Notes: generated by a model not told the origin, from the sequence alone. Positions 14,163 through 59,263 are shown, numbered from the stretch's first letter. The stretch: DNA of 64,000 nt from Candidatus Woesebacteria bacterium (GCA_017999345.1 JAGNLY010000004.1:886-64885), one strand, 5' to 3'. Translations and numbers: made by a program.

Positions 14163-16964
14163 TTGTATAATAGGTTTGTGTTTAAAAACAAATCTATTTT
14201 ATTAACCTTAGTTTTTTCGTTTTCTATTTTTGTTGGCTCTGTCTATTCTGTTTTTGCCCTAGATACTGTTGATGCGAACGCCGAAGGCGCAGCAGCGGGT
14301 TCTGAGACTACTGGTGGAGTATTAACGGGCAGCAGTGCCTATGAAACTGATCAGTATCGAACCTATAATACCAAAGGATATCCTGATTTTGACGATAAAT
14401 TTTATGTATCCACAATTAAATCTGTTCTTCAGGCTGATGACAATAAAGATGCCGAAGCAGCTGGCGCTTATGAAGATATAAGACAAGAGTTAGCACTAAC
14501 TGGCTATGAAACATATTGCTTACAAGAAAATGTAAAAATTGAACCTCAATATAACTCCAAGGAAATAATTGAAAGATTTTTAGAACTTTATCCAGAAGGA
14601 GTTAATCTTAGATCATTTTCAAGAGAAGTTCTTGGAATGGATAATGCTAACTTTCCAATATGGCGTGATCTAGGAGGTAAACAATTCTTAATGAACTCGC
14701 TTGAAGAATACTTTGGTTTTAAAGATTTATATGTAGGTGACGCTCCTAAAGCTGAAATTAACTCAGCAGCTATTAACTCTCTTCTCTCTCAAAGACAATC
14801 CTGTGTACAGGGGTGGAAAACTTTAGGAGCTCAAAGAAGGGATTGTGATAAACTTGAAGATCCAAGCACTTGTGAATTAATTAAAAGAAGAATTCCTGGA
14901 TCTGGATATGAGGTCCATGACATAATGGGTCTATTAAATGACTTTACCGGAGGAGGCTGGGCCGGTGGTGATGAAAAAAAAGGGGAAGCCTTAGCAGTCA
15001 AGTGGTGTGACACAATTTTTAGTGAACCTGAAGACCCTTCAAAATCAACTTTAACTGAAGCACAAAAAGCAATTCTCAAACCAATTAAAGATACAATTAT
15101 CAATGTTCCAACGTACATTGATAAAGCTTATAGATTTGGTTTTATTATTGCTGTTGTTGAAACGAGGCAACCTGGAAATCAACCTATTGGTGATTTTTTA
15201 ACAGAAAATGAAGAAGAATCTACGGTAATCTGGAATTTCTTTACTAAAAAAACTCAAGTTGTTCCTTGGGATGAAGTTCTAGTTGTTGCTTTTAAGCTTC
15301 CTGATATTGGAACAAATAAAGGTGGCGGAGCTCTTGAGAAATGGAATGATCCTCTAGATTTAACTAGAATAGTTTTATCTAATAAAGATGAGCTCGCACT
15401 ACATGAAGAAGCAGCCAAAAAAAAGCGAACCAGTACTCTTGAAGCTGCTATAGCTGCCTCAAATCAATCACCTGATAGTAGGGCATATTGTTATAGCGGC
15501 GATTTTCCATCTGGTGGTGGAACAAGAAGTTGCACGGTACCCTTGCCAAAAGCACTCACAGATTTTGTCAATGCGTCTGTTGTAAAGTGTGATCCAAAAG
15601 TTGAGCCCGTAAGCGAAATTAGTGATTTAGCTGGACTCAGGGATCCTTCCGATACAGGAAAAATATTTACAAAAGAAAATGGTGGCCAAATATTAATCAA
15701 TCTATTTTTAGATTCGACATATAATGTAAATGGATTAAGCCCTGATTACGCTGCAATTGTTCCAGATCACGAAGCTATCAAATCTATTTGGACAGTTACT
15801 CCTGAAAATTGGCCTCCAAAAGGAAATGACAGCTTTGTTCATTTTTATTTAGTCTATCCAGTTGGCTATGAACTTTCCACTATTGAACAAGAAATATCTG
15901 GTGCTTTTTTCAACAAAGAGCAGATAGCTTCAATGGGTACTGATCCAAGTATTGTGGAAAAATTTGAGGTTACTGGACAAACTCAAATCCTAGAAGCTGG
16001 AAAAGCGGGTTGGAAATATACAGATTGGCCAGCAACCCGAGCTTGGGAATGTGGACCATTAAAGATATTAGGAATTGAAACTGGCCTGCCAAAACCATGT
16101 ACTAAAAATCCAAGCTTAACCGCAAAACAAGAAGGCGCAAAAATCGATGTATTAGGAGGTAGACTCAGCTGGTGGTTAAGAAAAGTTCAGGTGGCTCTAA
16201 GTGCAAGATCAAGCTTCGCTCACTCTTACTTTGAATCATGCAAAACTATGGAAGAATTTTTATTAGGAAAATGTGCTGGCGCTGCAGACGGTGGTGGCGG
16301 CAGTGGTAATGGCAATGGAGTAGAACTTAGTTGCGATGAACTCAAACAACAAAAAGCAGAGCTGCCAACCATGAACAAATTGATGAAAATGACTTGCGAG
16401 ATTGCGAATAAAGATTCTAATGATGCCCAGCTACTTTGGGGACTTTTGCAGATTGAAGGAAGTCCTTTCCTGAGAGAAATATTAAAGCGTCAGAATGCAG
16501 GAAGTTGCAGTGGAGATAGTTGCGGTTCAATGAGCTGCGCAGATCTATTAACAAATTCATGCGGAGCTTCAAATATAATTGGAGTTTTGATTCCTCAATG
16601 TATTGATCCAATCGCATGCTCTCAAGCTGCATACTTTATTGATAGCACTGATGATCCTTGGATCAATGAGTCAAGAGAAAACCCACAGGTTGCTTGTGAT
16701 GTAGCAACTTCTTTAGATTATATTCTTAGAAAGAGAAAATCTGAAAAAACTTGGCTGACAGATCAATATATTGCTGCAAATGGATCAAGTCCATCCACTC
16801 AACAACTCTACTATATGATGGCAGGCAGAAACTATGGTGTTCCTCTTGAGAATTTAGTGCAGCCAGCTTGTGGCAACTATGATCCAGTTCAAGGTTGTGG
16901 TGGAGCCAATTATTGTGTATGTGCAATGGATACTTTTAAATTAAACTGCGGAGGCGGTAAATAA
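14163..16964 (+). CDS. Large Cys-rich exported protein; C-terminal region resembles a lytic transglycosylase (VirB1-like role proposed)
   Basis: N-terminal signal/anchor. More than 30 Cys. The C-terminus reads LLWGLLQIEGSPF (E codon at 16455), CGASNIIGVLIPQ and YYMMAGRNYG, which resembles the SLT ES/GLMQ/AYNAG pattern. The start could be GTG 14178 instead of TTG 14163. Confidence 0.45.
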   Translation: MYNRFVFKNKSILLTLVFSFSIFVGSVYSVFALDTVDANAEGAAAGSETTGGVLTGSSAYETDQYRTYNTKGYPDFDDKFYVSTIKSVLQADDNKDAEAAGAYEDIRQELALTGYETYCLQENVKIEPQYNSKEIIERFLELYPEGVNLRSFSREVLGMDNANFPIWRDLGGKQFLMNSLEEYFGFKDLYVGDAPKAEINSAAINSLLSQRQSCVQGWKTLGAQRRDCDKLEDPSTCELIKRRIPGSGYEVHDIMGLLNDFTGGGWAGGDEKKGEALAVKWCDTIFSEPEDPSKSTLTEAQKAILKPIKDTIINVPTYIDKAYRFGFIIAVVETRQPGNQPIGDFLTENEEESTVIWNFFTKKTQVVPWDEVLVVAFKLPDIGTNKGGGALEKWNDPLDLTRIVLSNKDELALHEEAAKKKRTSTLEAAIAASNQSPDSRAYCYSGDFPSGGGTRSCTVPLPKALTDFVNASVVKCDPKVEPVSEISDLAGLRDPSDTGKIFTKENGGQILINLFLDSTYNVNGLSPDYAAIVPDHEAIKSIWTVTPENWPPKGNDSFVHFYLVYPVGYELSTIEQEISGAFFNKEQIASMGTDPSIVEKFEVTGQTQILEAGKAGWKYTDWPATRAWECGPLKILGIETGLPKPCTKNPSLTAKQEGAKIDVLGGRLSWWLRKVQVALSARSSFAHSYFESCKTMEEFLLGKCAGAADGGGGSGNGNGVELSCDELKQQKAELPTMNKLMKMTCEIANKDSNDAQLLWGLLQIEGSPFLREILKRQNAGSCSGDSCGSMSCADLLTNSCGASNIIGVLIPQCIDPIACSQAAYFIDSTDDPWINESRENPQVACDVATSLDYILRKRKSEKTWLTDQYIAANGSSPSTQQLYYMMAGRNYGVPLENLVQPACGNYDPVQGCGGANYCVCAMDTFKLNCGGGK

Positions 16965-16977
16965 TTTTTAAGTTCTC

Positions 16978-17823
16978 TTATTTTTTAATTTTTCTATTAC
17001 GTTTTTTTAGTCTAGGTTGGACATTATCTTGATCTTTAGCTTGGTCTTTATCTTTAACGAACGCTTGACTGACTGCATTTTTGTTTCCGGAAATTCTTCT
17101 TGCCCCTGCCCTCATCAATTTGGCAACAACTTCAAAGGTATTTGCCGTAGTAGAGAAAGAACTAAAATTATTGGTTTCTTCACTAATTCCTCTCAATAAG
17201 TTGGTGGCTGATTCTGATGAAACAAACAAATCCAAAGAACTTATTAATTGAAAAACAAACTCGCTGTAACAAGAGAGCTGAGAAGCATCAAATTTAATAT
17301 TTCCAAACTCGGTTTCATATTTATTAATGCTCACTATCGCAGCCTGATTATAAAGATTCTCATAGCCAAAATAAAATTCTCCCAAGGAATCTAGTTCATT
17401 AACACCAATCACAATTACTAAGTCTGCCTCAGCTCCGGTATATGAAAACTCAACATTTTTATCAGAAAGTGGCGAAAAACCTTTTTTTGGCTTGATAGTT
17501 AGATAAAATTTCTTAGTTTCTTCACTTACATGATAACTAACTTTATCAATTGAATTTTCTAAATAATCCAAACCAATGCATAAATTTTCATGACCGATTT
17601 CTACTAAGGCTTCTTTCAAGTAGGCAATTTGTTTATTTTTAACTAGAACTTCCTTGTTGCAAAGTAGTTTGACAGTTTTTTTTGAATACAATTTTAGCGC
17701 TGCATAAAGCGAAGCTAAAGAAAGAAGTTGATCTTGAGAGGAGTCTTGAGAGCAAACAATCAAAATAGAATTTGAGTTGTTCAAAAGTTCATTAAACAAA
17801 TCTATTTTTCTTTTATCTATCAT
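16978..17823 (-). CDS. DHH-family (NrnA-like) fold protein with degenerate catalytic motifs
   Basis: Layout resembles an NrnA N-domain. ILIVCSQDSSQDQLLS replaces H..PDGDxxGS. ADLVIVIGVN and IVSINKYETEFG replace IDHH. GISEETNNFS replaces G..DTG.F. Basic tail KKRNRKIKK. Confidence 0.35.
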   Translation of the reverse strand: MIDKRKIDLFNELLNNSNSILIVCSQDSSQDQLLSLASLYAALKLYSKKTVKLLCNKEVLVKNKQIAYLKEALVEIGHENLCIGLDYLENSIDKVSYHVSEETKKFYLTIKPKKGFSPLSDKNVEFSYTGAEADLVIVIGVNELDSLGEFYFGYENLYNQAAIVSINKYETEFGNIKFDASQLSCYSEFVFQLISSLDLFVSSESATNLLRGISEETNNFSSFSTTANTFEVVAKLMRAGARRISGNKNAVSQAFVKDKDQAKDQDNVQPRLKKRNRKIKK

Positions 17824-17881
17824 TTGATGTCTTAATGTATCAGCTTTTTATTATTCTTACTATACCCGATTAAACATATTT

Positions 17882-17890
17882 TGTTATAAT
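17882..17890 (+). promoter_or_regulatory. Extended -10 (TGTTATAAT) 6 nt upstream of ATG 17897; leaderless candidate
   Basis: TG-n-TATAAT at 17882-17890. Only TAACAG separates it from the start codon, and there is no SD. Confidence 0.45.
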
Positions 17891-17896
17891 TAACAG

Positions 17897-19648
17897 ATGA
17901 TAAAAAGAGGCCTCTTTTTACTAGCTATATTTTTTTGTATTTTTTCTACTAATTCTTTTGATGTAAATGCAGCTGCACCTCTTCCTGATGCCAACGCCGA
18001 AGCAGGAGTTGCCGCTCCACTTCCTCCTGACCCTGCAGATTCCAGTGCTATGGAAGAAGCCTGGGGACCAAAATATGATCAAAGTCAAATTGATAGCTAT
18101 AGATATGCGGTTGAAACAGACAATTGTGCCACTCCTTCGCTAGAGTGCTTAGTTCACCAAACCTCAAGATTTGTTGCAATCGAATGGGTAAATAGCATTT
18201 TATATCCTGGATCAAAAGGATTAACTGATCCAAATGCTCCGGTCACAGACGCAGGAAGCAATAATGTTCTTTCCAACCAAGGCGGATTTGTCGGAGGCAT
18301 TACCTATTTAATGGGCGAAATGTATCGATACCCTGTCGCTAGAACTTCAGTATACGTTGCAGATGTACTTGAGAGCGCACACATCATCACTCCAGCATAT
18401 GCACAAGGACTCGGTTTTGCTTCATTAAATCCAGTTTTAGATCTTTGGAAAGTTTTTAGAAATGTTTCGTACATGCTTTTTGTTTTCATATTCATAGTTC
18501 TTGGTTTTATGATTATGTTTAGACAAAAAATTGGTGGCCAGACCGCAGTTACCGCCCAACAAGCCATTCCAAATGTAGTTGCTAGTTTAATTTTTGTCAC
18601 TTTTTCTTACGCTATCGCGGGATTTTTAATAGACCTAATGTATTTATTGATGTTTATGATTATTGGAATTTTTGGTCAAACAGCGCCTGGAGTAGATGGT
18701 GGAATTATTGACTTTAATATACTAGAACTTATGGGCAGGTTATTTCAAGATGTGAGTGGTTTTTCCAATAATGTTGACATTGTTACCCAATTAATGGGAT
18801 CAATGGTCAACAACGAAACTCTTGGAAATACCTTGGGAATCGTTGGAGGCGTTACTCTTTCATTAGTTTTGGCAGTTGCGATCTTGATTGGAACATTCAA
18901 ATTATTCTTTGAACTACTAAAATCATATGCCACAGTGGTTTTATCTGTTGTTACCGCTCCTCTGCTACTATTGGGTGGTGCATTTCCAGGTAAAAATGTT
19001 TTTGGGCCATGGGTTAAAAACATCGTTGCCAATTTATCAGCTTTCCCTGTCGTATTAATGGTCGTCATACTTTTCTATCAATTCACGGCAGTAGCTCCAA
19101 CAGCCGGTGGTTTTATCCCTCCTTTCTTACTTGGTAGAGGTCAATCTGGTGCAATTACCACTCTGATGGGATTGGCCATCATTCTTGCCTTGCCAGAAAT
19201 AGTTAAAGACATTAAGAAAAATCTTGGTGCTACTGAGGGCTTTGGCACAATGATCTTCAACGCTGCTGGCGCAAGAGCAAAGGAAAGTTGGGGCAGAACT
19301 GTTAAAGCTCCAGGACAAATTTACAATGCTCAGCCATTTGGCACTGGAGATGGAATGCCATTTAGAACCACTGGCACTGAAAGTGCTTTGGAAAGATTTA
19401 TTATTGGCTCCAGAGCTCAACGAAAAAGCGAGTACGATTATCAAAGACAGAGAGCTTTGCATGGTCAGGGTGCTACACCTACTAAAGAGGGTGGTTTATA
19501 TGGCATGTTGGTTAATGATAGGAGAGCTCGACTTAGATCACAGCAAGAAACAGGAAGTGGCGCTGGTGCCAATGTTAACATTAATGTAGATGCTGGTGGC
19601 AACGTTAGAAGAAGAACGTCGCAACAAATAAGAAGAAGACAGCCATAA
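17897..19648 (+). CDS. VirB6/TrbL-like polytopic membrane protein
   Basis: Signal peptide, an exported domain of about 170 aa, then 6 or more hydrophobic helices, then an R/G/Q-rich cytoplasmic tail. The size, topology and position in the locus match VirB6-type channel subunits. No diagnostic motif can be checked by eye. Confidence 0.5.
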   Translation: MIKRGLFLLAIFFCIFSTNSFDVNAAAPLPDANAEAGVAAPLPPDPADSSAMEEAWGPKYDQSQIDSYRYAVETDNCATPSLECLVHQTSRFVAIEWVNSILYPGSKGLTDPNAPVTDAGSNNVLSNQGGFVGGITYLMGEMYRYPVARTSVYVADVLESAHIITPAYAQGLGFASLNPVLDLWKVFRNVSYMLFVFIFIVLGFMIMFRQKIGGQTAVTAQQAIPNVVASLIFVTFSYAIAGFLIDLMYLLMFMIIGIFGQTAPGVDGGIIDFNILELMGRLFQDVSGFSNNVDIVTQLMGSMVNNETLGNTLGIVGGVTLSLVLAVAILIGTFKLFFELLKSYATVVLSVVTAPLLLLGGAFPGKNVFGPWVKNIVANLSAFPVVLMVVILFYQFTAVAPTAGGFIPPFLLGRGQSGAITTLMGLAIILALPEIVKDIKKNLGATEGFGTMIFNAAGARAKESWGRTVKAPGQIYNAQPFGTGDGMPFRTTGTESALERFIIGSRAQRKSEYDYQRQRALHGQGATPTKEGGLYGMLVNDRRARLRSQQETGSGAGANVNINVDAGGNVRRRTSQQIRRRQP

Positions 19649-19739: not shown

Positions 19740-22700
19740 TTAATTTTTTGCGCCTAGCTTATCTTTATTAAATAAGAAATGGAGTAGCTTAATTCTATCT
19801 ACAACCCACTGTGTTGTAGGACGAGAGCCTTTATCACGCTTTAGTTGCCAAAATTCTTTGCGTAAGTTTGTTTCCTGAATCTTGTAATGACATCCCTGTG
19901 CCAAATCAAAGCCGTTAGCCAATCTTAATAGATCTGCATGAGTAAATATTTCCTCTATACCTTCATCATTTGCATAGTCCATAGCATCTCTATCTTCTGG
20001 AGCAACTAGATTTAAAGATCGTTTATCATCATATAACTTATATCCAGATTTAGCTATTTTTTCTGTTTCTTCTGGAATGAGATCTAATAATAATTTTGCT
20101 TGGTTTATGACATACATAACTTGAGCGGTATTTAAAAGCGGACCTCCGCTAACGGATTGAACTGATAAATCTTCATAGCTACCAAAATCTAAACCGTTAT
20201 AAGTCTTTTCAATTTTTTCTGGAGATGACATATCTGGAATATTTCTAAAGTCTGGCTTGAATAAATAAAAATTTGCACGCATGAGTACATCGAAGTTAAA
20301 ATATCCTTGAAGCCATGGTTTAAACTTTTTATTAACAAACTCTTCCCTTTTTGCTGGTAGGACTGTCTTTGCTGCCTCAATCATTTTGCCGATTTTTTCA
20401 TTGACATAATATTCCGTCCCATTTTGAGCTCCTTCATTTTTGTCATCTCTAGAAAAAACATATTGCATCATTCTCATGACATCTTGAGGATATTGATTTG
20501 ATTCTGCAAGAAAAGCATTTATCCAATAATCTCTAGACTCTTTATAAAGAGCCTTTAGTCTTTGTTTTCTATCTCCAGATAAAGGTACTGATTCTGAACG
20601 AAAGCCATATTGTTCTAATTCCTCTGAGGTAGCCTTTAATGTGAATTTACCAATGGCTCTTACTAATGCCTTTTGAGTCTCTCCTTGATATCCAAATTCT
20701 TTTGCGACTCTAGACCATTCTTCAGGTCTATCTAAAGTGGTATTCACAGAAATTGGAACTTCTCTTGGACTTGAGAAAAAACTATATTTTTGCTCTGATG
20801 CAGAAGAAATTTTACTTGATGGCCATAAAAACATAATTGTTTGCACAGCTGATTGGTAAATAACTTTGTCAGGATTGGTTGAACGAGATGCCCAGTTTTC
20901 CGGAGTCATTGACTTAATTCCATCTTTGACTGAAAGAATAGTTGCTAAAGTAGCTCTTCCATCACCAAATCCTCCGGGATCTCCCGGCAAAGAATGTGAA
21001 TATTGAGCAGCAACTGGATATGGAGGATAGCCGTGAACCAACACGTCGCCAAAAGGAGCCACAAAGTCTGGGCGAGCCGTATTAGCGTGAGCACTTTCAA
21101 CATAAAGTCCTATAGACGCACCTTTTGCCTCTCCTTCTTGAGCCTGAACCCCAACATTACCACCATTGCCTCTAGTTTCATTCTTGTAACTTGCGTCTAA
21201 GAAAGCTTCTATTCCGCCACCGATTCTGTAACACTCTCCTATGTGATAGGCCATTAAAGATTCTTTTTCTGAAAGACCCATTGATCTCAGGTCGGCAAGT
21301 ATTTTTTCAATCATCGATTTTCTTGACTCATCTGTACTTGTATATCTAGGGACAACTGCATATTCTTTTTTTATTGCATATTTATTTCTTCCATTTGCAT
21401 CCCCAGCCGGTCCGTAAAAAAAGTTTTGTACTGCGGGATTCATACTATTCCAGATAGCTTCTCTTTGTGGTTTTTTCAAAATCATAGCTGACCAAATAGC
21501 CATACTATATTCAACTCCTTCCACAAATCTAAGTTCTTGAGGAGTTGCATTTTCTCTATTACTAAGCAAGGCGCCTAGATTTGGTGAATAACCAGTACTA
21601 TCATATAATTTTTGAATTGCAGCTAGGGCTCCCTCAGGTCCTACGGCCGATTCATTATTTCTTCTAACCACAGCTCTATTGTGCCAAGTAGATATTTCCC
21701 TAAATTTTTCTTTCATTGATCCGCAAAACTCCTTAACCTCAGCATACTCATTTTCATCAAAATAATTAAAAAACTGGTCGAAAAAAGATTCATAAGATTT
21801 AATTCTGTTTTCGTCACTTTGGTCATAAGTAAAACCAAGAAGATTCAAACTAAACTCTTTGGCTGGACCAGCCATAGGATTGACTTTATACGATGTTGTT
21901 CTTGGATCATCAACTAAATCTAATAGTCCGTTTAAGGTGGACACTGTTGCAATTCCAATCATTTTTTCATGGATTATGCCCAAATACTCTGCTAAGGTTT
22001 GTCCTTCTTTTCTTGTCTCATTATCAAGTCTTTGGGCCAAAAATAGTTCTACAGATTTTTTGACTGCTTGCTTATTCCTATAACCAGCTGAATTCTCTAT
22101 TTTTCCTTTTGCTTCTAATAACGGATTCAATATTTTATTAATTCTTTCTTGCGCTGCAACATATTTATTATTTATGTCTGATATCCATGCATTTGCCACC
22201 ACATCATACTTAGAATCTTGATTAAAATAATTTGCACTATTTTTTAACTGCTCAAGTGAATCCAATAGTTCTTGTAATTTGTCAATTTCGGTTAATGAGT
22301 CAACTGGGGTGACACCGGAGATAATTTTTTCGCACTCTTGCTCTAGGTCATTTAAATCAATTCTGACCTCAATTAAAATTCTTACAGACTCTGCTCGTCT
22401 CCATATTTCAGATAAATATGTTTCTTTTCTATTTGATAACTCAGAATCATCAGGTACTTTGGTCTCAATCTTTGCTTTTTCAAGTACTCCATCACTACTA
22501 AACAATGTGCTTTTTATATCTAGTAAATCAGAGTTATCTTCTGGTAAATCTACATCAATTATTGACAGTAAAATATTTAAGTTTTCAAATCCTGGCAATT
22601 CGTTATCAACCCACTCATTGAAGGCCTTATCAAGCAGCTGATCTTTTCTAATCTCCATTTTAATAAGTAGTTCATTTGCCGGCTCAACAACCGTTGTAGA

Positions 22701-23687
22701 TATTTCTTCTAACAAGTCCTCACGTTTCAATGCTTCAGCTATACTTTTAACCCCGCTGCCATCCGACATAGTTAATATTATTTTTTGAACAGCCTCAAGT
22801 CTTTTTCTAAGTAAATTAATTGCCGAAAGGTTTTTGTCTCTTTCGTTTAAAACAATATTCTCATCAACAATCAGCTGAGTTGGGTCAAAATTAGGATCTA
22901 AAATTTTGTTTTCTAGGTAAGTGCTTAATAATTCTAAGTCTTTAAATACTTTTGATTTGCGATAGTCGTCCTCAACATTTTCTCGTTCATTTAAAGATCC
23001 TCTAATTTCATCAAATCTTTTTCGCAAGGCTTTAATTATCTTTTCACAATTATTTAAAAAATCACTTTCTTCTAAATTGTTTATCAGCACTCGATCCACA
23101 ACACTCTCTTCTAATTCAAAAATTGCTTCTTCTATCAGCTTGGCTTCATCTTTACTTCCATTAAATTCTTGTATCAATTTGGCTATTATTTTTCTCTTCT
23201 CTTTAAATCCATTTAGCCAAGATTCAAAATCTACATTTTCTTCTTCTTTTCCTGATTCAGGTTTTGGCGTATCATCCTTATCATCTGGTTTATCTTGATC
23301 GAGATCAATAAAATCATCTTTAGTAAAACCCCACTTCTCAAGCACTAAAAATATATCTTGAAGCTGATTCTTTATTTTTTTAATATAATCTTTTTCTGTT
23401 GAGGATAAATGCGATGTGTCATGACTAGATAAGTATTCCTTAATACTGTTGCCTATAGACTTAATAAAATCAATTATTTTTTTCCTTTCATCTGGTGTGA
23501 AATCACCACTTTCAAGTCTTAATGGATCAATTGATCCCATAAATTCATTTAGTCTTTGAAATAATGAATTTATTAAACCTGAAAAATTTTCAAAGTCTGG
23601 GCTGGTCTCATGGTCGGGAAGCATGGCACTGTAATGCTGATCATCAGCATTATTAGGAGCAAGTATGTCTCTTTCTTCTTTAGTCAT
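19740..23687 (-). CDS. Giant (1315 aa) acidic, helix-rich soluble protein of unknown function
   Basis: Uninterrupted ORF with no signal peptide or TM. The N-terminal ~550 aa are D/E/K/L-rich and heptad-like. I recognise no catalytic motif. Confidence 0.6.
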   Translation of the reverse strand: MTKEERDILAPNNADDQHYSAMLPDHETSPDFENFSGLINSLFQRLNEFMGSIDPLRLESGDFTPDERKKIIDFIKSIGNSIKEYLSSHDTSHLSSTEKDYIKKIKNQLQDIFLVLEKWGFTKDDFIDLDQDKPDDKDDTPKPESGKEEENVDFESWLNGFKEKRKIIAKLIQEFNGSKDEAKLIEEAIFELEESVVDRVLINNLEESDFLNNCEKIIKALRKRFDEIRGSLNERENVEDDYRKSKVFKDLELLSTYLENKILDPNFDPTQLIVDENIVLNERDKNLSAINLLRKRLEAVQKIILTMSDGSGVKSIAEALKREDLLEEISTTVVEPANELLIKMEIRKDQLLDKAFNEWVDNELPGFENLNILLSIIDVDLPEDNSDLLDIKSTLFSSDGVLEKAKIETKVPDDSELSNRKETYLSEIWRRAESVRILIEVRIDLNDLEQECEKIISGVTPVDSLTEIDKLQELLDSLEQLKNSANYFNQDSKYDVVANAWISDINNKYVAAQERINKILNPLLEAKGKIENSAGYRNKQAVKKSVELFLAQRLDNETRKEGQTLAEYLGIIHEKMIGIATVSTLNGLLDLVDDPRTTSYKVNPMAGPAKEFSLNLLGFTYDQSDENRIKSYESFFDQFFNYFDENEYAEVKEFCGSMKEKFREISTWHNRAVVRRNNESAVGPEGALAAIQKLYDSTGYSPNLGALLSNRENATPQELRFVEGVEYSMAIWSAMILKKPQREAIWNSMNPAVQNFFYGPAGDANGRNKYAIKKEYAVVPRYTSTDESRKSMIEKILADLRSMGLSEKESLMAYHIGECYRIGGGIEAFLDASYKNETRGNGGNVGVQAQEGEAKGASIGLYVESAHANTARPDFVAPFGDVLVHGYPPYPVAAQYSHSLPGDPGGFGDGRATLATILSVKDGIKSMTPENWASRSTNPDKVIYQSAVQTIMFLWPSSKISSASEQKYSFFSSPREVPISVNTTLDRPEEWSRVAKEFGYQGETQKALVRAIGKFTLKATSEELEQYGFRSESVPLSGDRKQRLKALYKESRDYWINAFLAESNQYPQDVMRMMQYVFSRDDKNEGAQNGTEYYVNEKIGKMIEAAKTVLPAKREEFVNKKFKPWLQGYFNFDVLMRANFYLFKPDFRNIPDMSSPEKIEKTYNGLDFGSYEDLSVQSVSGGPLLNTAQVMYVINQAKLLLDLIPEETEKIAKSGYKLYDDKRSLNLVAPEDRDAMDYANDEGIEEIFTHADLLRLANGFDLAQGCHYKIQETNLRKEFWQLKRDKGSRPTTQWVVDRIKLLHFLFNKDKLGAKN

Positions 23688-23790
23688 ATATCCACATATT
23701 GTAACATTTTAAATCAAAAACATAAACGCTTTTTAGGATCAAAAATACCAGCTTACTAATCTGTTCTAGCTATCAACATTTATCACAGGG

Positions 23791-23796
23791 TATAAT
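23791..23796 (+). promoter_or_regulatory. TATAAT 6 nt upstream of GTG 23803; leaderless candidate
   Basis: TATAATAGTTTCGTG here parallels TATAATAGGTTTGTG at 14166-14180. Confidence 0.35.
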
Positions 23797-35218: not shown

Positions 35219-35261
35219 TTTGTAGTGTAAACCAGAAAAACTCTGATATAATACTATCCTT

Positions 35262-37226: not shown

Positions 37227-37679
37227 ATGAATTTAATTGTTTTTACCGATGGAGGATCTAGAGGTAACCCCGGAAACGCTGCAATTGGAGTTATTGCTTA
37301 TATGACTGACAAACAATTTTCTTTCGAAAATAAAGCAAATCTAGAAATTGCTTATGAATATTCTGGATTTATCGGTCAAGCAACTAATAATGAGGCAGAA
37401 TATCAGGCTATTATTAATGCAATTAAATGGATTTCTACAGAGCAGTTAAAATACGAAAAAATTGTTTTTTATTTAGATTCAAAATTAGTGGTTGAACAGA
37501 TAAACAAGAATTGGAAAATAAAAGACGAAAGAATGAAAAAATACGCTCATGAATTTTGGAAAATTGCCGAAGAAAACAAAATTATTTTGGAAATAATCCA
37601 TGTTAGAAGAGAGTTTAATTCAGAGGCAGATGCCCTTGTTAATCAAGCTCTAGATAATCAAGAATTGCTGAAAAATTAA
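37227..37679 (+). CDS. rnhA: Ribonuclease HI
   Basis: FTDGGSRGNPGNAAIG, NNEAEYQAIINAIKW, LDSKLVVEQI and NSEADALVNQALD are the DEDD RNase H motifs. Confidence 0.85.
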   Translation: MNLIVFTDGGSRGNPGNAAIGVIAYMTDKQFSFENKANLEIAYEYSGFIGQATNNEAEYQAIINAIKWISTEQLKYEKIVFYLDSKLVVEQINKNWKIKDERMKKYAHEFWKIAEENKIILEIIHVRREFNSEADALVNQALDNQELLKN

Positions 37680-37723
37680 ACTCCTCTTTAATAAGTCTTT
37701 TTTATTTTCTACAATTAACTCAA

Positions 37724-41681: not shown

Positions 41682-41712
41682 AAAAAAACCCTCATTTATT
41701 GAGGGTTTTTTA
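41682..41712. terminator. Bidirectional rho-independent terminator between convergent genes
   Basis: AAAAAAA, CCCTC (41689-41693), loop ATTTATT, GAGGG (41701-41705), TTTTTT. Confidence 0.7.
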
Positions 41713-42132
41713 TTTATTAAAAAGTTTATTATTGGGATCCAAGTCTTTTGCTTTTTGCCAAAATTCTTGAGCAATTTCGTTATCGCCCAAAGACTTGTTT
41801 AATGAATGTAAATTTAATAGCGCGTCAATAGAATTTGGTTGTTTTTGAATTACTGCTTCCCAAAAAATAATTTCATTTTTTATCTCATTTTCTGTCATGA
41901 TTTTTTGTGTGTAATAATCTTGATTTTCAGGCTTGAAAGAGACAATGTTTTTAATTTCTTGGTTTAAGAGTCTTGATTTAATCAGAAAAAACAAAGCTAG
42001 ACTAATCAGGGCAAATAAGAAAAAAATTGAAAGAAATAAACCTCTGGCTTTTTTTATTTTTTCTAAACCCAAGCGTGAGATAAAAATTGCCAAATAAAAA
42101 AGCAACCTAGCTTTTAGAATAATTAATTTCAT
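41710..42132 (-). CDS. Membrane-anchored protein with a TPR-like C-terminal helix pair
   Basis: 140 aa with two N-terminal hydrophobic segments. The C-terminus WEAVIQKQPNSIDALLNLHSLNKSLGDNEIAQEFWQKAKDLDPNN is TPR-like. Confidence 0.45.
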   Translation of the reverse strand: MKLIILKARLLFYLAIFISRLGLEKIKKARGLFLSIFFLFALISLALFFLIKSRLLNQEIKNIVSFKPENQDYYTQKIMTENEIKNEIIFWEAVIQKQPNSIDALLNLHSLNKSLGDNEIAQEFWQKAKDLDPNNKLFNK

Positions 42133-48635: not shown

Positions 48636-48663
48636 TTGAATATGTGTTTTTCCAGCTTATAAT
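48636..48663 (+). promoter_or_regulatory. Sigma70-type promoter placed for a leaderless transcript
   Basis: TTGAAT (48636-48641), 16 nt spacer, TATAAT (48658-48663). Only GATCTC lies before the ATG at 48670. Confidence 0.5.
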
Positions 48664-50515: not shown

Positions 50516-51901
50516 ATGTCAAAAAAATCTAGCATATTTGTTTGTCAAAATTGCGCATGGTCATCTTTAAGATGGGTTGGCCAATGTCAGTCATGCAATA
50601 GTTGGAATACTTTGGTGGAAGAGGTTTCTGAATTAAGTAAATCTGGTAAAGAAATAACTTCTGATGAAAATATTGCTGATTTTACGACCAATCTTTCTCA
50701 AGTCGACACTCTGAAATCCTCAAAAAAGCGCCTTTCAACTTTTATCGATGAGTTTGATAGGGTTTTGGGCGGAGAAGATGCTAATCGTGGAATGGTTAAT
50801 GGGGCAGTGATGCTAATTGGTGGTGAACCCGGGATTGGTAAGTCTACCTTATTAACCCAAGCTGTGATTAGCATGCTCGCTCACGCAGAATCGTCAAATT
50901 TTGCAAATAAAAAAATAGCCTATGTGTGCGGGGAAGAAAATCCTGCTCAAATCTCAATGAGAATCAGTAGGCTTAATGAAAAAGATTATGATCAAGATAA
51001 TTTAATTTTTATTACATCATCAAATGTCGATTCTGTTTCAAAGGCAATTAAAAAACTTAAGCCAAGCGTGGTGGTTGTTGATAGTATTCAAACACTTACA
51101 ACTTTTGATTTAACTGGCAGCGCCGGAAGCGTTGGACAAGTTAGAGAATGTGCCGAAAGACTTACGACATTGGCAAAATCAATAGACGTTCCAATTTTTT
51201 TGGTGGGTCATGTTACCAAAGAAGGTACGATTTCTGGGCCAAAAGTCTTAGAACACATTGTTGATGCTGTACTAGAACTAAGTGGTGATAGAACAGGGGA
51301 TCTTAGAATACTAAGATCTGTAAAAAATCGTTTTGGAGCCACCGACGAGGTGGGTGTTTTTAGAATGAGAGACTATGGCTTTGAATCAGTCACTAATCCT
51401 AGTGAATTATTTTTGGAGTATGCAGATGGTAATGTACCAGGCAGCGCGACTGTTTGTGTAATGGAAGGAACTAGACCTTTGTTAGTTGAAATTCAAGCGC
51501 TCGTGGTTGACTCTCAGCTGGCAATGCCTAGAAGAGTGGGTCGAGGACTAAAGTTATCCAGAATTCAGGTTTTGGCTGCAGTTTTGCAAAAACACTGTAA
51601 ATTACCCCTAAGTAGCAATGATATTTTTGCCAGTGTTGCCGGTGGCTTTAATGTTAATGAGCCAGCACTAGACTTGGGGTTGGCAATCGCTATGGCCAGC
51701 TCGTTGGTCAATAAACCGATCAATGAGAAAACAGTATTTATCGGAGAGATTGGTCTTTTGGGGGAAATAAGATCAGTTAATTTACTCGATAGAAGAATTA
51801 AAGAAGCTAAGAGATTGGGGTTCAATAAAGTCATCTCCAAAAAAACTCACTCAACAGTTGCTTCAGTTTTAAAAGAACTTAAGCTTATTCGGTCTTCTTA
51901 G
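50516..51901 (+). CDS. radA: DNA repair protein RadA/Sms
   Basis: Zn-finger CQNCAWSSLRWVGQCQSCNSWN. Walker A GGEPGIGKSTL. KNRFG motif. Lon-like C-terminal domain. Confidence 0.93.
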   Translation: MSKKSSIFVCQNCAWSSLRWVGQCQSCNSWNTLVEEVSELSKSGKEITSDENIADFTTNLSQVDTLKSSKKRLSTFIDEFDRVLGGEDANRGMVNGAVMLIGGEPGIGKSTLLTQAVISMLAHAESSNFANKKIAYVCGEENPAQISMRISRLNEKDYDQDNLIFITSSNVDSVSKAIKKLKPSVVVVDSIQTLTTFDLTGSAGSVGQVRECAERLTTLAKSIDVPIFLVGHVTKEGTISGPKVLEHIVDAVLELSGDRTGDLRILRSVKNRFGATDEVGVFRMRDYGFESVTNPSELFLEYADGNVPGSATVCVMEGTRPLLVEIQALVVDSQLAMPRRVGRGLKLSRIQVLAAVLQKHCKLPLSSNDIFASVAGGFNVNEPALDLGLAIAMASSLVNKPINEKTVFIGEIGLLGEIRSVNLLDRRIKEAKRLGFNKVISKKTHSTVASVLKELKLIRSS

Positions 51902-54077
51902 AAAATCTCTCACTACTAACTTGAATTACTTTTTCTTTATTACTATTACTGCTTTTTGCGAGTCCAAGTGTTAGGGCAGGGAATGGTTTTGAGACAATAT
52001 TATCAATCGATAACTTATTAATAACTTGATGTCTTTCTAGAGAGACAAGGTCTTCACTTGTATAATGATCTCCATATTCTTTGGCAAAAACCTGGGCATC
52101 TTCAGCGCCCATCACAAAACTAATCATGCTTCCGCAGTTGCCAAAAATTGCTTTTTGAACCTCTTCTGGGATTTGAGCAATATATTGATTCGCTAGGGTT
52201 AAATTTAAGCGATATTTTCTGGCTTCTGACAAAATTTTACTGAAAGAATCAGTGGCAAAATTTTGAAACTCATCAACATAAAGATAAAAATCTTTTCTTT
52301 CTTCTTCAGGTACATTCACTCTAGCCATTGCAGCTAATTGAATTTTTGTAATTAACATCGAGCCGAGTAGAGTGGCATTGTCTTCTCCAAGTTTTCCCTG
52401 AGACAAATTAACTAAAATTATTTTTCCAGTGTTCATTGCTTCTTCAATGCTAAAAGAGCTTTTTCTAGCGTTAACAATGTTTCTAACAATCGGTGAGGAC
52501 ACAAATTGTCCAACTTTGTTTAAAATAGACGCTATAGCCTCAGTTCTTTGCCTATCTTGCATTTTGTTGTATTCATCCACCCAGAAGCTTTTTAGAATTG
52601 GGTCGTCGAGCGTTTCAACAATATTATCCCTAAACTTTTTATTTGTAAGCAACTCTAAAATGTCAGAAAGTCTTGATTGCTCGGCTTTGAGTAGAGTCAA
52701 AAGAGAGTTTCTGAGGATGTATTCAAGTCTTGGGCCCCATGAATAACCATATAGTTTTTTGAAAACTGAAACAATTCCCGAAGCAATTAATTCTCTGTGA
52801 ACAATATTTTCTCCCTCAAATAAGTTTAATTTTACAGTTCTGTTTTTTTCACTTGGATCAAAATAAATAACGTCGTTAATTCTACGTGAAGGTATATAGT
52901 TTAAAATTGTTTCAATTAAGTCTCCATGCGGATCAATGACACACATGCCCTCATCATTTTTTAAATCGTTGATAGCCATGTTGGCCAGTAGAGTAGACTT
53001 TCCTGTTCCAGTCTTACCAATCACGTACATATGCCTTCTGCGGTCGTTTCGTTTCAATCCATATATAACGTCATTATTTTTATAGTGGGTTTTGGCAAAT
53101 GCATTAATATCTCTTTTTAATTCTGGATCCATATCCTTAGTAATGACTGGTAGGTTTTCAGGTGGCTCGCCCAATAAATTCTTCCCCCAGGCTATATTTG
53201 GAATGGTAGACAACTTTTCATTTGGCATATGAAGAATTGTGGCCGTCTCATCCAACGAAAGGTGAAATTTTGGAGATGCCTTAAATGACCTAGCCTTCAT
53301 TTGTTTGAGGAAATAATCTTTAAACAAATATTTTCTTCTAAGTCGAAGACTATTTCCTTCACTATCTGCCACTGATTCAAACGATGCCTCAAGAGTTTCT
53401 AAAAGCATTCTGCTTCTTAGTTTGTCATTTGATGAAATGACAATTTTTATTATGCTTTTTAGAGACTTGCTGTCGATTTTTTTATTAATTTTTTGTTTTT
53501 GACTGCTTAATATTTGAATAGGAGATTCTGCGCTTTGAGTATTGGCGATTCTCTCGACTGGAGATCCAGATTTCCAATGTTCATTACTTTTGCTAAAAAC
53601 GTATTGAATAGTTGCTCTGTCATATTCTTGGAGTTTTGAAAGGGTAGATAGAATAGTTGACATTGGATCTGTATCGCTAAAATCTCTATATGTTTTTAAG
53701 GGCAGATAGTTAGGTCTTCTTAGAGAGAGATTTCCCATTTCAAAAAACTGACTATTAGTGTCTACATAATTTTCTGGGGGCAGGAGGAAGCTATCTATGG
53801 CATCTTCTGGTATTTCATTGATAAGAATTTCAGGATAACTAGCTCTAAGTATGCTTTTAATGTAATTAATCAATCTATCTGGTACATATATTTGGAAAAA
53901 TATTGTTTGATTTTTAACGATAATTTCAAAACTTAAACGCTCGTCTTTTTTGAGCAATTTCCAGTACCACTGGTTTCTGAGGTTGGGAATTGAACCAAAA
54001 AACTGAGCAGCAGATTCAGGCGTGTGTTCGCTGTCTCTTCCAGTTCTTAGCTCTAAAATACTATGTTTTGCAGGCAT
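51885..54077 (-). CDS. virD4: VirD4/TraD-type coupling-protein-like ATPase (no obvious TM segments)
   Basis: Walker A GKTGTGKST (52993-53019). Walker B FYLYVDEFQNF. C-terminal NCGSMISF. An N-terminal ~330 aa soluble domain. Its 3' end overlaps the radA 3' end by 17 nt. Confidence 0.65.
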   Translation of the reverse strand: MPAKHSILELRTGRDSEHTPESAAQFFGSIPNLRNQWYWKLLKKDERLSFEIIVKNQTIFFQIYVPDRLINYIKSILRASYPEILINEIPEDAIDSFLLPPENYVDTNSQFFEMGNLSLRRPNYLPLKTYRDFSDTDPMSTILSTLSKLQEYDRATIQYVFSKSNEHWKSGSPVERIANTQSAESPIQILSSQKQKINKKIDSKSLKSIIKIVISSNDKLRSRMLLETLEASFESVADSEGNSLRLRRKYLFKDYFLKQMKARSFKASPKFHLSLDETATILHMPNEKLSTIPNIAWGKNLLGEPPENLPVITKDMDPELKRDINAFAKTHYKNNDVIYGLKRNDRRRHMYVIGKTGTGKSTLLANMAINDLKNDEGMCVIDPHGDLIETILNYIPSRRINDVIYFDPSEKNRTVKLNLFEGENIVHRELIASGIVSVFKKLYGYSWGPRLEYILRNSLLTLLKAEQSRLSDILELLTNKKFRDNIVETLDDPILKSFWVDEYNKMQDRQRTEAIASILNKVGQFVSSPIVRNIVNARKSSFSIEEAMNTGKIILVNLSQGKLGEDNATLLGSMLITKIQLAAMARVNVPEEERKDFYLYVDEFQNFATDSFSKILSEARKYRLNLTLANQYIAQIPEEVQKAIFGNCGSMISFVMGAEDAQVFAKEYGDHYTSEDLVSLERHQVINKLSIDNIVSKPFPALTLGLAKSSNSNKEKVIQVSSERFSKKTE

Positions 54078-54279
54078 ATAAAAATTATAGCACCTCTACA
54101 AGTTGGAGTATATTGGTTTGTTGGTTGAAGGCCAAATTGTTTATTCCAGACAAGAGGATAGTTATCCACATTAAATTATATTTATATATTGATGTGAATA
54201 ACTATTGTATTTCTCTCTATAAATTATAAATTTAATTAAATATAGGTTGCTAATTTATTTAAGACAAATAACTTATAGG

Positions 54280-54307
54280 TTGACTATTTAAAGAAAAAAG
54301 TTATACT
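54280..54307 (+). promoter_or_regulatory. Sigma70-type promoter in the long rho-upstream intergenic region
   Basis: TTGACT (54280-54285), 16 nt spacer, TATACT (54302-54307). Confidence 0.45.
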
Positions 54308-54327
54308 AGAAAAAGGCAATAAAAAAA

Positions 54328-54372
54328 AGCATTATTATCGCTGGACAGACCACGAATAACAATGCTCTTTTT
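54328..54372 (+). terminator. Terminator/attenuator-like hairpin about 15 nt after the predicted TSS
   Basis: AGCATTATTATCG (54328-54340) pairs imperfectly with CGAATAACAATGCT (54353-54366), then CTTTTT. A perfect 9-bp hairpin follows: TTCACATGG 54374-54382 with CCATGTGAA 54407-54415. Confidence 0.35.
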
Positions 54373-54575
54373 GTTCACATGGCGTTTAATTAAAAACTTT
54401 TAAGAACCATGTGAAACAGAGATTATCTGAAATTGCCTAGATTGTAAATTCTATCTTTTTGATTCTTAATACATAGAACTGCATCGTAGACTAAATTTAT
54501 AACCTAAATAGATAAAAAATTCTTTCAAAATTAGCAAAAACAGCTTTTTTTGAAGTCAAATAGAGGGTGTTTTGC

Positions 54576-54632
54576 GGAGGTTCGGTAGTTGGGCAGGCAA
54601 CCGAGCTTCCACATAGCATCTTGTAAAAGATG
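54576..54632 (+). other. Structured 5' leader upstream of the small ORF
   Basis: GGAGGTTCGGT (54576-54586) pairs with ACCGAGCTTCC (54600-54610). That is 11 bp including two G-U pairs, valid only as + strand RNA. Then CATCTT-GTAA-AAGATG (54617-54632) and the GGGGGT SD at 54651-54656. Confidence 0.35.
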
Positions 54633-54660
54633 ACATATTTATTTAGAATAGGGGGTAATT

Positions 54661-54867
54661 ATGTTTTTGCCTGGTAGATTTGATAGGCCAACTTCGTTAG
54701 GTAGAGAAAAGCTCGAAGCAAGACTTCGCGGCTTATATCTTCAAATTCAAGGTATGATTAGCATAGGAATTTTAGGATCAACAGATCAATCTAAAAAAGA
54801 AGAAGCTAATGTTGAGGTTGAGGCAGCCGCTCCAACGGAAGAAGAGATATCAGCAGAAGAGAATTAG
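54661..54867 (+). CDS. Small hypothetical protein (68 aa), acidic C-terminus
   Basis: A strong SD (AGGGGGT) lies 5 nt upstream of the ATG. I recognise no homology. Confidence 0.4.
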   Translation: MFLPGRFDRPTSLGREKLEARLRGLYLQIQGMISIGILGSTDQSKKEEANVEVEAAAPTEEEISAEEN

Positions 54868-55097
54868 GTTTAAATTTATTCGTTGTCTTTCGCTTTTATT
54901 TGACATTTCACACATTATTTGGAATAATATCACCAACTTCGTGATTTCTTATTAATGTCCCTAAAGAATGTTTCTACAGAACTTGCTTCATAAATGGGTT
55001 TCTCGTAATAAAAATTATCATTGTAGGTTGCAATTATTTATTTAAATTATCATTTTTACCATAAAAAAATATTGTTATATTAATTAACGAACAAATT

Positions 55098-56660: not shown

Positions 56661-56734
56661 ATAAATTGTCCAAATAAGCTGTCTAAATAAATTGCCGTTT
56701 GTTCTAGATTTGAGTTATAATTTCTTTAAATAAT

Positions 56735-57847: not shown

Positions 57848-57860
57848 CAAGCTAAATCAG

Positions 57861-57869
57861 TGATATAAT
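57861..57869 (+). promoter_or_regulatory. Extended -10 (TGATATAAT) 5 nt upstream of the obg ATG; leaderless candidate
   Basis: TG-n-TATAAT at 57861-57869. Only GTATT lies before the ATG at 57875. Confidence 0.45.
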
Positions 57870-57874
57870 GTATT

Positions 57875-59263
57875 ATGATAGATTTAGTAAAGTTAATTTT
57901 AACAGCTGGTGACGGTGGTCTTGGTAAAGTTTCATTTTTGCGTGAAAGAAGAATTCCAAAAGGTGGCCCTGATGGTGGTGATGGTGGTAAGGGTGGATCT
58001 GTAATTATTCGCGGCAACAAAAATCTCGCAACTCTCAAAAATTTCAAAGGCAAAGTTCTGTTTGAAGCAGAAGATGGCCATCCAGGTGAAAAAAAGAACA
58101 TGATTGGAGCCAAGGGCAAAGATTTGGTGTTAGATGTTCCAATCGGAACATCAATTTCAGTTGTTGCTGAGAATGGTAATGCCAAAAAAAGAAGAACTTT
58201 TGTTGGTATTAATTCTCAATTAAATAGAGATGGCATCAGACACGAAAAATACTACTTAGAAAAAGAAGGAATGTCTGTCCCACCAAGAGAAGTTGATAGC
58301 TTTTATCTTCTCAGAGAAGCCGTATTTGATGAAAAATTAGCCAAAAGTAAAGAGAGTTTGGAGGATGTAGACTTAGAAGTTTTTGATTTGGAAGCTTTTG
58401 AATCAACCAAAGCAGAAGTAGATGAGCCAATTTATCCTGACGTTCAAACAATTTTATCTGCAGTAAGAGGATTCATTCCAGTTGAAGTCGAGAGAATACT
58501 GGAAGATGGACAAGAAGTTGTCATCTGTCAGGGTGGTTTTGGAGGCAGAGGAAATGATAGATTCAAGAGTTCGAGGAACGTTACTCCTTTGGAAGCAGAG
58601 TATGGATCTTTTGGTGAAAAAAGAGCAGTGGTTTTGGAACTTAAGCTTCTGGCTGATGTTGGACTTGTAGGCTTTCCTAACGCTGGAAAGAGCACTTTAT
58701 TATCTGTTGTTACTAAGGCAAGGCCAAAAATTGCATCTTACCCATTTACGACAATAGAGCCTAATCTTGGAATTCTGGAATTTGGTGATTATCAACAAAC
58801 AGATGGAATTGAAGAAATCGTAATTGCTGATATTCCTGGATTAATTGATGGTGCAAGCGAAGGAAAAGGCTTGGGTCATTCATTTTTAAGACACGTAGAA
58901 AATTGTTCAACAATGTTATATGTGTTGGCTCTAAATGAAGCAGATGTATTTGATCAAGAAGCCACCGACAAACAGAAGGCAGAAATTTTGTATAAACAAT
59001 TAACCAGTCTGCAAAAAGAACTTGAAAACCATGCAAAAAAGAGCAGTGGAGCACTTAATAGTTTGGGATCAAAGTTGTTTGAGGATAAGAAATTTTTGGT
59101 TAGTGTTAATAAAATAGATCTATATTCTGAAAGTTTAATAAGCGAAATAAAGAAACTATTTAAGAAAAAAAAGATTTCACCAATATTTTTTAGTGGTGCT
59201 ACTAAAATTGGAATGCCAGAACTAGCAGGCAAGCTAAGAGAAGTTGTTTCGTTGAATAAGTGA
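57875..59263 (+). CDS. obg: GTPase Obg/CgtA with ~110-aa insertion in the Obg fold
   Basis: GDGGLGKVSFLRERRIPKGGPDGGDGGKGG, GGFGGRGNDRF, LKLLADVGLVGFPNAGKSTLL and DIPGLIDGASEGKGLG. Insertion between VPIGTSI and VVICQGG. Confidence 0.9.
   Translation: MIDLVKLILTAGDGGLGKVSFLRERRIPKGGPDGGDGGKGGSVIIRGNKNLATLKNFKGKVLFEAEDGHPGEKKNMIGAKGKDLVLDVPIGTSISVVAENGNAKKRRTFVGINSQLNRDGIRHEKYYLEKEGMSVPPREVDSFYLLREAVFDEKLAKSKESLEDVDLEVFDLEAFESTKAEVDEPIYPDVQTILSAVRGFIPVEVERILEDGQEVVICQGGFGGRGNDRFKSSRNVTPLEAEYGSFGEKRAVVLELKLLADVGLVGFPNAGKSTLLSVVTKARPKIASYPFTTIEPNLGILEFGDYQQTDGIEEIVIADIPGLIDGASEGKGLGHSFLRHVENCSTMLYVLALNEADVFDQEATDKQKAEILYKQLTSLQKELENHAKKSSGALNSLGSKLFEDKKFLVSVNKIDLYSESLISEIKKLFKKKKISPIFFSGATKIGMPELAGKLREVVSLNK

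Follow-up and report, generated by a model that had tools for sequence, protein, structure and literature searches.

A 64 kb stretch, hereafter the window, of a contig that measures 68,960 bp (locus tags KA111_) and was deposited under the name 'Candidatus Woesebacteria bacterium' contains a series of genes whose start codons follow a Pribnow-type −10 hexamer (TATAAT or a near variant) at a short, recurrent distance. The host is an ultra-small bacterium belonging to the CPR (candidate phyla radiation), also called Patescibacteria, of Microgenomates type; its close relatives bear the labels Ca. Pacebacteria or Patescibacteria, and the G+C content of the window is ~35%. With a probability of about 80%, the hexamers belong to extended −10 promoters which abut the start codons and would give rise to leaderless or near-leaderless mRNAs, translated without a Shine-Dalgarno (SD) sequence. 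An earlier note on the same DNA (the original prediction) had proposed leaderless mRNAs, and the positional enrichment of the hexamers, their promoter-like flanks, the bias towards operon-first genes, the depletion of SD sequences and the geometry at a spacer of 6 nt all argue for this reading.

The eight pairs of hexamer and start codon listed in the original prediction are found exactly where it placed them, and it is correct that they lack an SD: GGAG, GAGG and AGGA are absent within −17 to −4 at each of them. The list was too short, however, as at least five further sites (54077−, 44559−, 46403−, 23687− and 50180) have to be added. The sites are given below, with the spacer between hexamer and start codon written as N followed by its length in nucleotides:

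10585-10590 (+ strand): TATAAT, N10, ATG 10601; first type IV secretion system (T4SS) pilin paralogue, 121 aa, start as deposited.
14166-14171 (+ strand): TATAAT, N6, GTG 14178; secreted protein, 928 aa.
17882-17890 (+ strand): TGTTATAAT, extended −10, N6, ATG 17897; polytopic membrane protein, 583 aa.
23706-23698 (− strand): TGTTACAAT, N10, ATG 23687; 1315-aa protein (newly found).
23791-23796 (+ strand): TATAAT, N6, GTG 23803; 1157-aa protein.
From 35244 (+ strand): TGATATAAT (TATAAT at 35247-35252), pyrimidine-rich N9, ATG 35262; rpmH, ribosomal protein L34.
37710-37715 (+ strand): TACAAT, N8, ATG 37724; DUF4012 protein, 1020 aa.
44576-44568 (− strand): TGATATAAT, N8, ATG 44559; valS (newly found).
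46418-46413 (− strand): TATAAT, N9, ATG 46403; VanW-family protein, 605 aa (newly found).
48636-48663 (+ strand): TTGAAT-16-TATAAT, N6, ATG 48670; nucleotidyltransferase, 307 aa.
From 50167 (+ strand): TATATT, N7, ATG 50180; lipoprotein-like open reading frame (ORF), 108 aa, a weaker candidate without a diverged orthologue for comparison (newly found).
54092-54084 (− strand): TGCTATAAT, N6, ATG 54077; T4SS coupling-protein-like (VirD4-like) ATPase, 730 aa (newly found).
57861-57869 (+ strand): TGATATAAT, N5, ATG 57875; obg.

The TG of an extended −10 is present at 17897, 57875, 54077(−), 44559(−), 23687(−) and rpmH, and the site at 48670 is the only one in the window with a good −35 element. 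Two of the sites, TATAATAGGTTTGTG and TATAATAGTTTCGTG, are indeed identical at 13 of 15 positions. The promoter of 14178 is internal and lies 9 nt past the stop of the preceding pilin gene. The product of 17897 is the same as the deposited protein; the gene itself is oriented divergently to gene 16978-17823, with 73 bp of intergenic DNA between them. The mRNA of 10601 is predicted to be near-leaderless, with a 5' untranslated region of 0-3 nt.

Three other candidates in the window were rejected: TATAGT-N9 at 13732, where the conserved promoter is TGGTATAAT at N23 and the gene is hence leadered, and two operon-internal hexamers without orthologue support, TAAAAT-N9 at 37227 and TATCAT-N8 at 42132(−).

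TATAAT occurs 70 times in the window, counting both strands, and one may ask whether the arrangement arises by chance, since in DNA of 35% G+C this hexamer is frequent and any distance can be found when start codons are scanned. A generic promoter scan, which does no better than shuffled sequences, would agree with that explanation. The positional statistics refute it: perfect TATAAT at spacers 5-8 is found at 7 of the 52 called genes of the window, where 0.55 would be expected from the other positions of these upstream regions (Poisson p=1.8e-6), and none of the 5000 shuffles came to 7 hits. Spacer 6 alone accounts for 5 hits, compared to 0.136 expected (p=3.5e-7). The repeated spacing had been proposed to be the signal.

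The same excess is seen in relatives. The sample consists of 79 metagenome loci (~0.9 Mb, 32-50% G+C) which encode relatives of the 17897 protein (28-80% identity), and was reduced to 68 by dropping 11 redundant loci. Hexamers were taken as −10-class when T1, A2 and T6 were present, with at most one mismatch. Genes were called mechanically (longest non-overlapping ORFs, first ATG or GTG), so that some of the percentages given here are approximate. A test that does not depend on gene calls used the 632 TATAAT of the relatives: for spacers 6, 7, 8, 9 and 10, the hexamer is followed by an ATG that opens an ORF of 100 aa or more in 28, 24, 24, 10 and 17 cases, respectively, compared to ~2 at each of the other spacers. 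With called genes, −10-class hexamers are found at spacers 6-10 in 52, 35, 21, 32 and 20 cases (160 of 580 genes), against a background of ~5 for each spacer from 11 to 49 and ~2 for each spacer in front of internal in-frame ATGs. Six syntenic housekeeping loci, collected via valS homologues, replicate the result with 4, 6, 8 and 6 hexamers at spacers 6-9 (104 genes). Positional enrichment before starts, which had been named earlier as the way to check the arrangement, is thus strongly positive in both the window and its relatives.

The Enterococcus plasmid pCF10, which carries a Gram-positive T4SS and has a similar G+C content (36%), served as a control: the same pipeline found 0 hexamers at spacers 0-12 of its 36 genes, and 72% of these have an SD. 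A Pribnow-type −10 hence stands at a preferred short distance from the starts in the CPR sequences, and both the internal-ATG and the pCF10 controls are flat. Taken with the preservation of the geometry in orthologues (see below), these results leave chance with a negligible probability.

Two artefacts were considered and rejected. The TAA within TATAAT can act as an in-frame stop, and hence set an ORF boundary, at spacers 2, 5, 8 and 11 only, so the peaks at 6, 7, 9 and 10 do not come from this effect; there is no excess at spacers 2 and 11 in the relatives, and pCF10 shows no peak. Neither do a few repeatedly sampled families account for the counts, as the geometry is present in one or more members of 55 of the 190 gene families, including 25 of the 130 singleton families.

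The geometry depends on the position of the gene in its transcription unit. It is found at 90 of 207 divergent genes (43%) and at 30 of 69 genes that follow a gap of 26-60 nt (43%), compared to 14 of 171 genes (8%) that lie 25 nt or less from an upstream gene on the same strand (p=1.8e-15). About a quarter of all genes belong to the geometry class, and in this bacterium and its relatives roughly one third of the transcription units have a −10 box at 6-10 nt from the start codon. SD-like 4-mers are found on 3% of these genes, 21% of the other genes and 7% of the background (p=4e-10). GTG starts are equally frequent in both classes (27 of 180 and 72 of 452). An unbiased count of hexamers 5-9 nt 5' of the starts returns TATAAT as by far the most frequent enriched word (75 hits, 15-fold), and its overlapping variants ATAATA and GTATAA are enriched 17-21-fold. 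The SD family (AAGGAG, GGAGGA, AAAGGA) is enriched separately at the same distance (12-16-fold, 8-18 hits). The enrichment of both families at one distance is the dual pattern described for group C by the authors of GeneMarkS-2 (PMC6028130): the −10 motif is found at operon-first genes, which lack an SD, while internal genes use another signal. In the window, some comparison genes had been said to have clear SDs, which holds in part: AAGGAG at 13257 and GGAGG at 11371 are clear, and the motifs at 54661 (AGGGGG), 63079 (AAGGGG) and 62472 (AGGA) are weaker.

Both an SD and a start-proximal −10 are missing from most genes: 203 of 403 operon-first-like and 121 of 171 operon-internal genes in the window and the loci L003-L081, with the window operon 1369-9848 (−) as an example. 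The 10 nt upstream of such genes are A-rich and G-poor. The apparently weak overall use of SD in this CPR clade suggests a third, SD-independent mode of initiation.

The low use of SD also bears on the nature of the hexamers. Some SD-independent mechanism must exist in this clade, and many genes are merely A-rich upstream; the A/T-rich hexamer could then be a translation signal on leadered mRNAs, i.e., a non-SD ribosome-binding or S1-binding site similar to those of GeneMarkS-2 group B. A signal of this kind would be expected at operon-internal genes as well, yet the motif is 5-fold rarer there. The sequence around the hexamers also resembles that of a promoter. In the relatives, the near-start hexamers are preceded at −3/−2 by T (0.51) and G (0.60), compared to 0.27 and 0.23 in coding controls, which is the TG of sigma-70 extended −10 promoters, one base 5' of the hexamer. 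A weak TTGa is seen at −23 to −20 of the hexamer, which corresponds to a 17-bp spacer. The free positions 4 and 5 of the hexamer are A in 94% and 88% of the near-start cases, compared to 61% and 78% in coding controls, so that near-start hexamers are closer to the Pribnow consensus than those within genes. The TG and the trace of a −35 element are read by RNA polymerase and not by ribosomes, as expected of promoter elements.

The distance to the start codon points in the same direction. Across 49 bacteria, the transcription start site (TSS) has both its centre and its mode at 7 bp downstream of the −10 (PMC12641261). With a spacer of 6, the seventh base after the −10 is the start codon's A or G, which thus falls on the modal TSS. 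A pyrimidine precedes the start codon in 81-86% of the N6 and N7 cases, as expected from the preference for Y-R at transcription starts. The modal distance is therefore that of a −10 to its TSS, and a ribosome-binding role for the hexamer is very improbable.

Orthologues keep the geometry even where the surrounding DNA has diverged. In the 17897 family, almost all of the ~35 diverged loci, whose flanks cannot be aligned, have TGnTAtAAT 6-10 nt 5' of the ATG. In the 14178 family, a TATAAT-class hexamer was found by the pipeline at N6-8 before GTG (13) or ATG (8) in 21 of 25 orthologues; in the remaining 4 this motif precedes a start codon located further downstream, which is GTG in 3-4 of them. 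The geometry of this family does not depend on the gap to the upstream pilin gene, which varies from 20 to 238 nt. All three orthologues of 23803 have TATAAT-N6, followed by GTG in two and ATG in one, and both detectable orthologues of 23687(−) have TGYTACAAT-N10-ATG. At 48670, TTGAAW-16-TATAAT-N6/7-ATG is kept in the loci L001, L084, L085 and L086 while spacer and discriminator diverge. L001 also has TGATATACT-N7-ATG at the orthologue of 54077(−). About 9 loci have TATAAT at N10, N8 or N6 before the orthologue of 10601.

The housekeeping genes behave similarly. valS has TGnTATAAT in 7 of 7 genomes (N6-N9, and one N14), the DUF4012 gene is preceded in all 7 genomes by TACAAT or TAGAAT, with a spacer of N7-8, and rpmH has TGRTAYAAT-N9-ATG with a pyrimidine tract 5' of the ATG in 5 of 6 syntenic relatives. 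The N9-10 spacing of the VanW gene is kept in 4 of 6 genomes. The loci L082 and L083 were rejected as evidence of conservation, because they come from essentially the same strain and their upstream DNA is nearly identical to that of the window, hence uninformative. In the same genomes dnaN, the L25 gene and yidC are consistently leadered, which indicates that genes belong to the leaderless class individually. The length of the leader also evolves: it ranges from ~5 to 32 nt in the family of pilin 13732 and is variable in the 17823(−) family too.

From the motif, its position and enrichment, the promoter-type flanks, the operon context, the exclusion of SD and the conservation, we infer where the transcripts would begin and how they would be translated. 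The promoters would be of the sigma-70 type, mostly extended −10 (TGnTATAAT) with a weak or absent −35. At spacers 6-8, RNA polymerase would initiate on the first base of the start codon, an A or G, and at spacers 9-10 transcription would begin 1-4 nt 5' of it. On the resulting leaderless or near-leaderless mRNAs, devoid of SD, translation would have to start at the 5'-terminal AUG or GUG in an SD-independent manner, a step suggested by the conserved full-length ORFs and N-termini that begin at these codons. This would be a lineage-wide mode of expression for operon-first genes, used by ~30-45% of them in the Microgenomates-type CPR clade.

Several points weigh against this mechanism. The sample of relatives is centred on the neighbourhoods of the T4SS cluster and of dnaA-valS, and orthologous families are counted repeatedly in it. 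A generic scan for −35/−10 pairs of hexamers gives no enrichment (56 sites compared to 65.6 in shuffles, and 59 compared to 69.6) and recovered only 3 of the sites; a −35 is missing from most of these promoters, which makes such a scan uninformative in DNA as AT-rich as this. For the primary sigma factor, both its presence and its specificity have been taken as given. Spacers of 9-10 nt exceed the usual discriminator, and the mRNAs concerned may have leaders of 2-4 nt instead of none. The orthologues of obg (71-74% identity; two loci found by scanning contigs with Obg) have TGTTACAAT ~24 nt upstream and are hence leadered: obg keeps a promoter of its own, and it is the leaderless geometry that is not conserved. 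Lastly, the genes at 14178, 48670 and 57875 start 20-36 nt past genes on the same strand with no terminator predicted in between, and leadered read-through transcripts may coexist there.

The last two points, together with the variable leader of the 13732 family, bear on whether the promoters are real and the mRNAs mainly leadered nonetheless, either because the true start codon lies downstream or because upstream promoters and read-through dominate. Several observations speak for the start codons themselves. They are those of the proteins deposited at NCBI, including GTG 14178 (928 aa) and ATG 10601, and a longer version of the 14178 gene starting at TTG 14163 is absent from the protein collection. 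As judged by eye, the N-termini fit these codons: signal peptides, MKRTWNP in L34, MIDLVKL..GDGG in Obg and the N-terminus of ValRS all begin there, as does the conservation among orthologues. The divergent genes 17897, 23803 and 23687(−) have intergenic regions of 73-115 bp in which no other candidate −10 comes closer than 18 nt. Read-through mRNAs would offer neither an SD nor a 5' end to recruit the ribosome, and the promoter of 14178 is kept in essentially all 25 orthologues regardless of the upstream gap. We therefore consider mainly leadered mRNAs to be unlikely, and extended −10 promoters giving leaderless or near-leaderless mRNAs remain the preferred explanation.

The genes concerned have varied functions. 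Leaderless genes had been said to include T4SS-like ones, and such genes do carry the geometry; it is not special to them, as valS, obg and rpmH share it. Housekeeping genes of the window comprise dnaA-dnaN-rpmH-rnpA-yidC as well as valS, rho, obg and radA, in addition to type IV pilin-like genes. The identity of the T4SS-like (conjugation-type) cluster is borne out by pilins of the VirB2/TrbC type, a VirB4-like ATPase and a coupling protein. Tandem T4SS-pilin paralogues occupy 10601-14157, and all three that were checked (10601, 13257 and 13732) match Pfam T4SS_pilin. The cluster also contains a PrgI-like gene (27942; E=1.4e-5, 26.0 bits, slightly below the Pfam cut-off of 27.0), a TraC-like gene (29163-30104, from the match of a near-identical protein) and a VirB4-like ATPase gene (30104-32140, from DUF87, P-loop_TraG and AAA_10 matches of a near-identical protein). 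The coupling-protein-like ATPase is encoded elsewhere in the window (51885-54077; Pfam TrwB_AAD_bind and TraG-D_C matches of a near-identical protein). No Pfam match was found for the large proteins 14178, 17897 and 19740-23687(−), and only a sub-threshold match to DUF6861 for the 23803 protein. An Rfam scan of the whole window returned zero hits, so that a riboswitch or leader RNA does not explain the upstream regions.

Two of the start-proximal promoters have additional features. The near-palindromic AT-rich segment ACTATATAATAAC (within 10550-10601) is common to a sigma-factor gene (10551−) and the first pilin gene (10601+); its + strand reads TATAAT and its − strand TATAGT, so that two promoters overlap back to back. 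The sigma-factor gene is leadered, with an AAGG SD-like motif, and directly adjoins this near-palindromic AT-rich segment in the relatives L003 and L021. The spacer between TACAAT and ATG 23687(−) contains, at 23688-23696, the reverse complement of ATATCCACA, a DnaA box with one mismatch, which is partly conserved in two orthologues and is probably coincidental.

Other DnaA-box-like 9-mers (TTATCCACA, at most one mismatch) are found around dnaA: four lie within 125 bp of the dnaA-dnaN intergenic region (33839-33963) and two just 5' of dnaA (32182-32202). The window contains 31 of them, compared to 20.3 in shuffles, which is a marginal excess. The cluster at dnaA/dnaN is likely oriC. In the window, dnaA is a single 521-aa gene (32261-33826), while in the near-identical strain L083 (GCA_964496685.1) it is called in two pieces of 422 and 82 aa (4539-6103); the L25 region of L083 holds a run of N. 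Both features look like assembly problems of that metagenome-assembled genome and not like biology. A 1,020-bp gap (54078-55097), which separates rho from the divergent coupling-protein-like gene, has two DnaA boxes, one perfect (54162) and one with a single mismatch (54193). A 68-aa ORF with the SD AGGGGG lies there too, at 54661, and a near-identical contig has it as a called gene; nothing in Rfam matches the gap.

Three type IV pilin-like genes with an N-terminal GFTLIELL prepilin motif lie in tandem at 61744-63534. In contrast with the T4SS-pilin cluster, they have SD-like motifs (AAGGA, AGGA and AAGGGG) and not the leaderless geometry. Strong hairpins resembling intrinsic terminators, with stems of 11 and 12 bp followed by T runs, are found at 13649-13673, 3' of the pilin gene 13257-13625, and at 41683-41711, where the L25 gene and gene 41710-42132 converge; they help to bound the transcription units.

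CPR genomes are known almost solely from metagenomes, and the models of gene starts and expression signals applied to them were trained elsewhere. If about one third of their transcription units are leaderless, the prediction of starts in CPR requires a dual model combining promoter and ribosome binding site, even if pipelines such as the Prokaryotic Genome Annotation Pipeline, which uses GeneMarkS-2, may already model leaderless starts implicitly. The practical effect is seen in the conserved GTG 14178 as opposed to the longer ORF from TTG 14163. Start-proximal TGnTATAAT boxes would also allow promoters, and hence operon boundaries, to be read directly, including promoters internal to apparent operons such as the T4SS-like cluster. 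An AT-rich lineage with reduced ribosomes would join those bacteria in which leaderless mRNAs are in heavy use, and conserved natural candidates for GUG-initiated leaderless mRNAs become available for testing.

That leaderless initiation is the main mode for operon-first genes across much of CPR/Patescibacteria (Microgenomates-type, 32-50% G+C), including deeply conserved GUG-initiated mRNAs, is a tentative extension, to which we give slightly less than an even chance. If true, and with weak SD elsewhere, initiation in these reduced-ribosome bacteria would be largely SD-independent. A new major lineage would then enter the leaderless-rich group, so far mainly Actinobacteria and Deinococcus-Thermus, and leaderless translation could be tied to the pared-down CPR ribosome.

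The closest parallel among known systems is GeneMarkS-2 group C (M. tuberculosis, Streptomyces, Corynebacteriales, Deinococcus-Thermus), in which leaderless transcription is frequent, a Pribnow box lies 6-8 nt before the first genes of operons, SD sites at the same distance serve the other genes, and ~25-50% of operons are predicted to be leaderless (PMC6028130). The CPR sequences likewise have a start-proximal −10 at operon-first genes, here at 30-45% of the operon-first-like ones, and SD elsewhere. Every sequence-level feature of the group C pattern that was tested is present. Unlike the group C genomes, the sequences belong to a CPR lineage of Microgenomates type and have a low instead of a high G+C content; the remaining genes make weak use of SD, and GTG starts occur as often among the leaderless genes as among the others. 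In Actinobacteria the −10 takes the degenerate form TAnnnT, while the hexamer found here, unlike in the Actinobacteria and Deinococcus cases, is a near-consensus TGnTATAAT that usually has the extended TG.

In archaeal group D, a promoter element also stands at a fixed distance from operon-first starts without SD. The archaeal element is a TATA box ~22-26 nt upstream (GeneMarkS-2 group D, PMC6028130), whereas that of the CPR sequences is a bacterial −10 located 6-10 nt upstream.

The promoters themselves resemble the extended −10 promoters of Gram-positive bacteria and Terrabacteria (TGnTATAAT, a poor −35, and G in 60% of cases at the TG). The mRNAs made from the extended −10 promoters of Bacillota are normally leadered and contain an SD, and pCF10, with SD on most of its genes and no start-proximal −10, differs from the CPR sequences accordingly.

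Full-text literature searches returned no paper that links leaderless mRNAs to CPR/Patescibacteria; the nearest report is that the anti-SD motif is missing in some Parcubacteria (PMC9297842). The mechanism is known elsewhere, and its occurrence in a CPR lineage would be the new element.

Leaderless mRNAs of the E. coli system, such as lambda cI from PRM and Tn1721 tetR, start on the A of AUG and do not need an SD. They are isolated cases in an SD-dominated genome and depend strongly on AUG. The CPR class differs from them in that it comprises about a quarter of all genes, and in that GTG starts are as frequent in it as in other genes and are conserved in orthologues.

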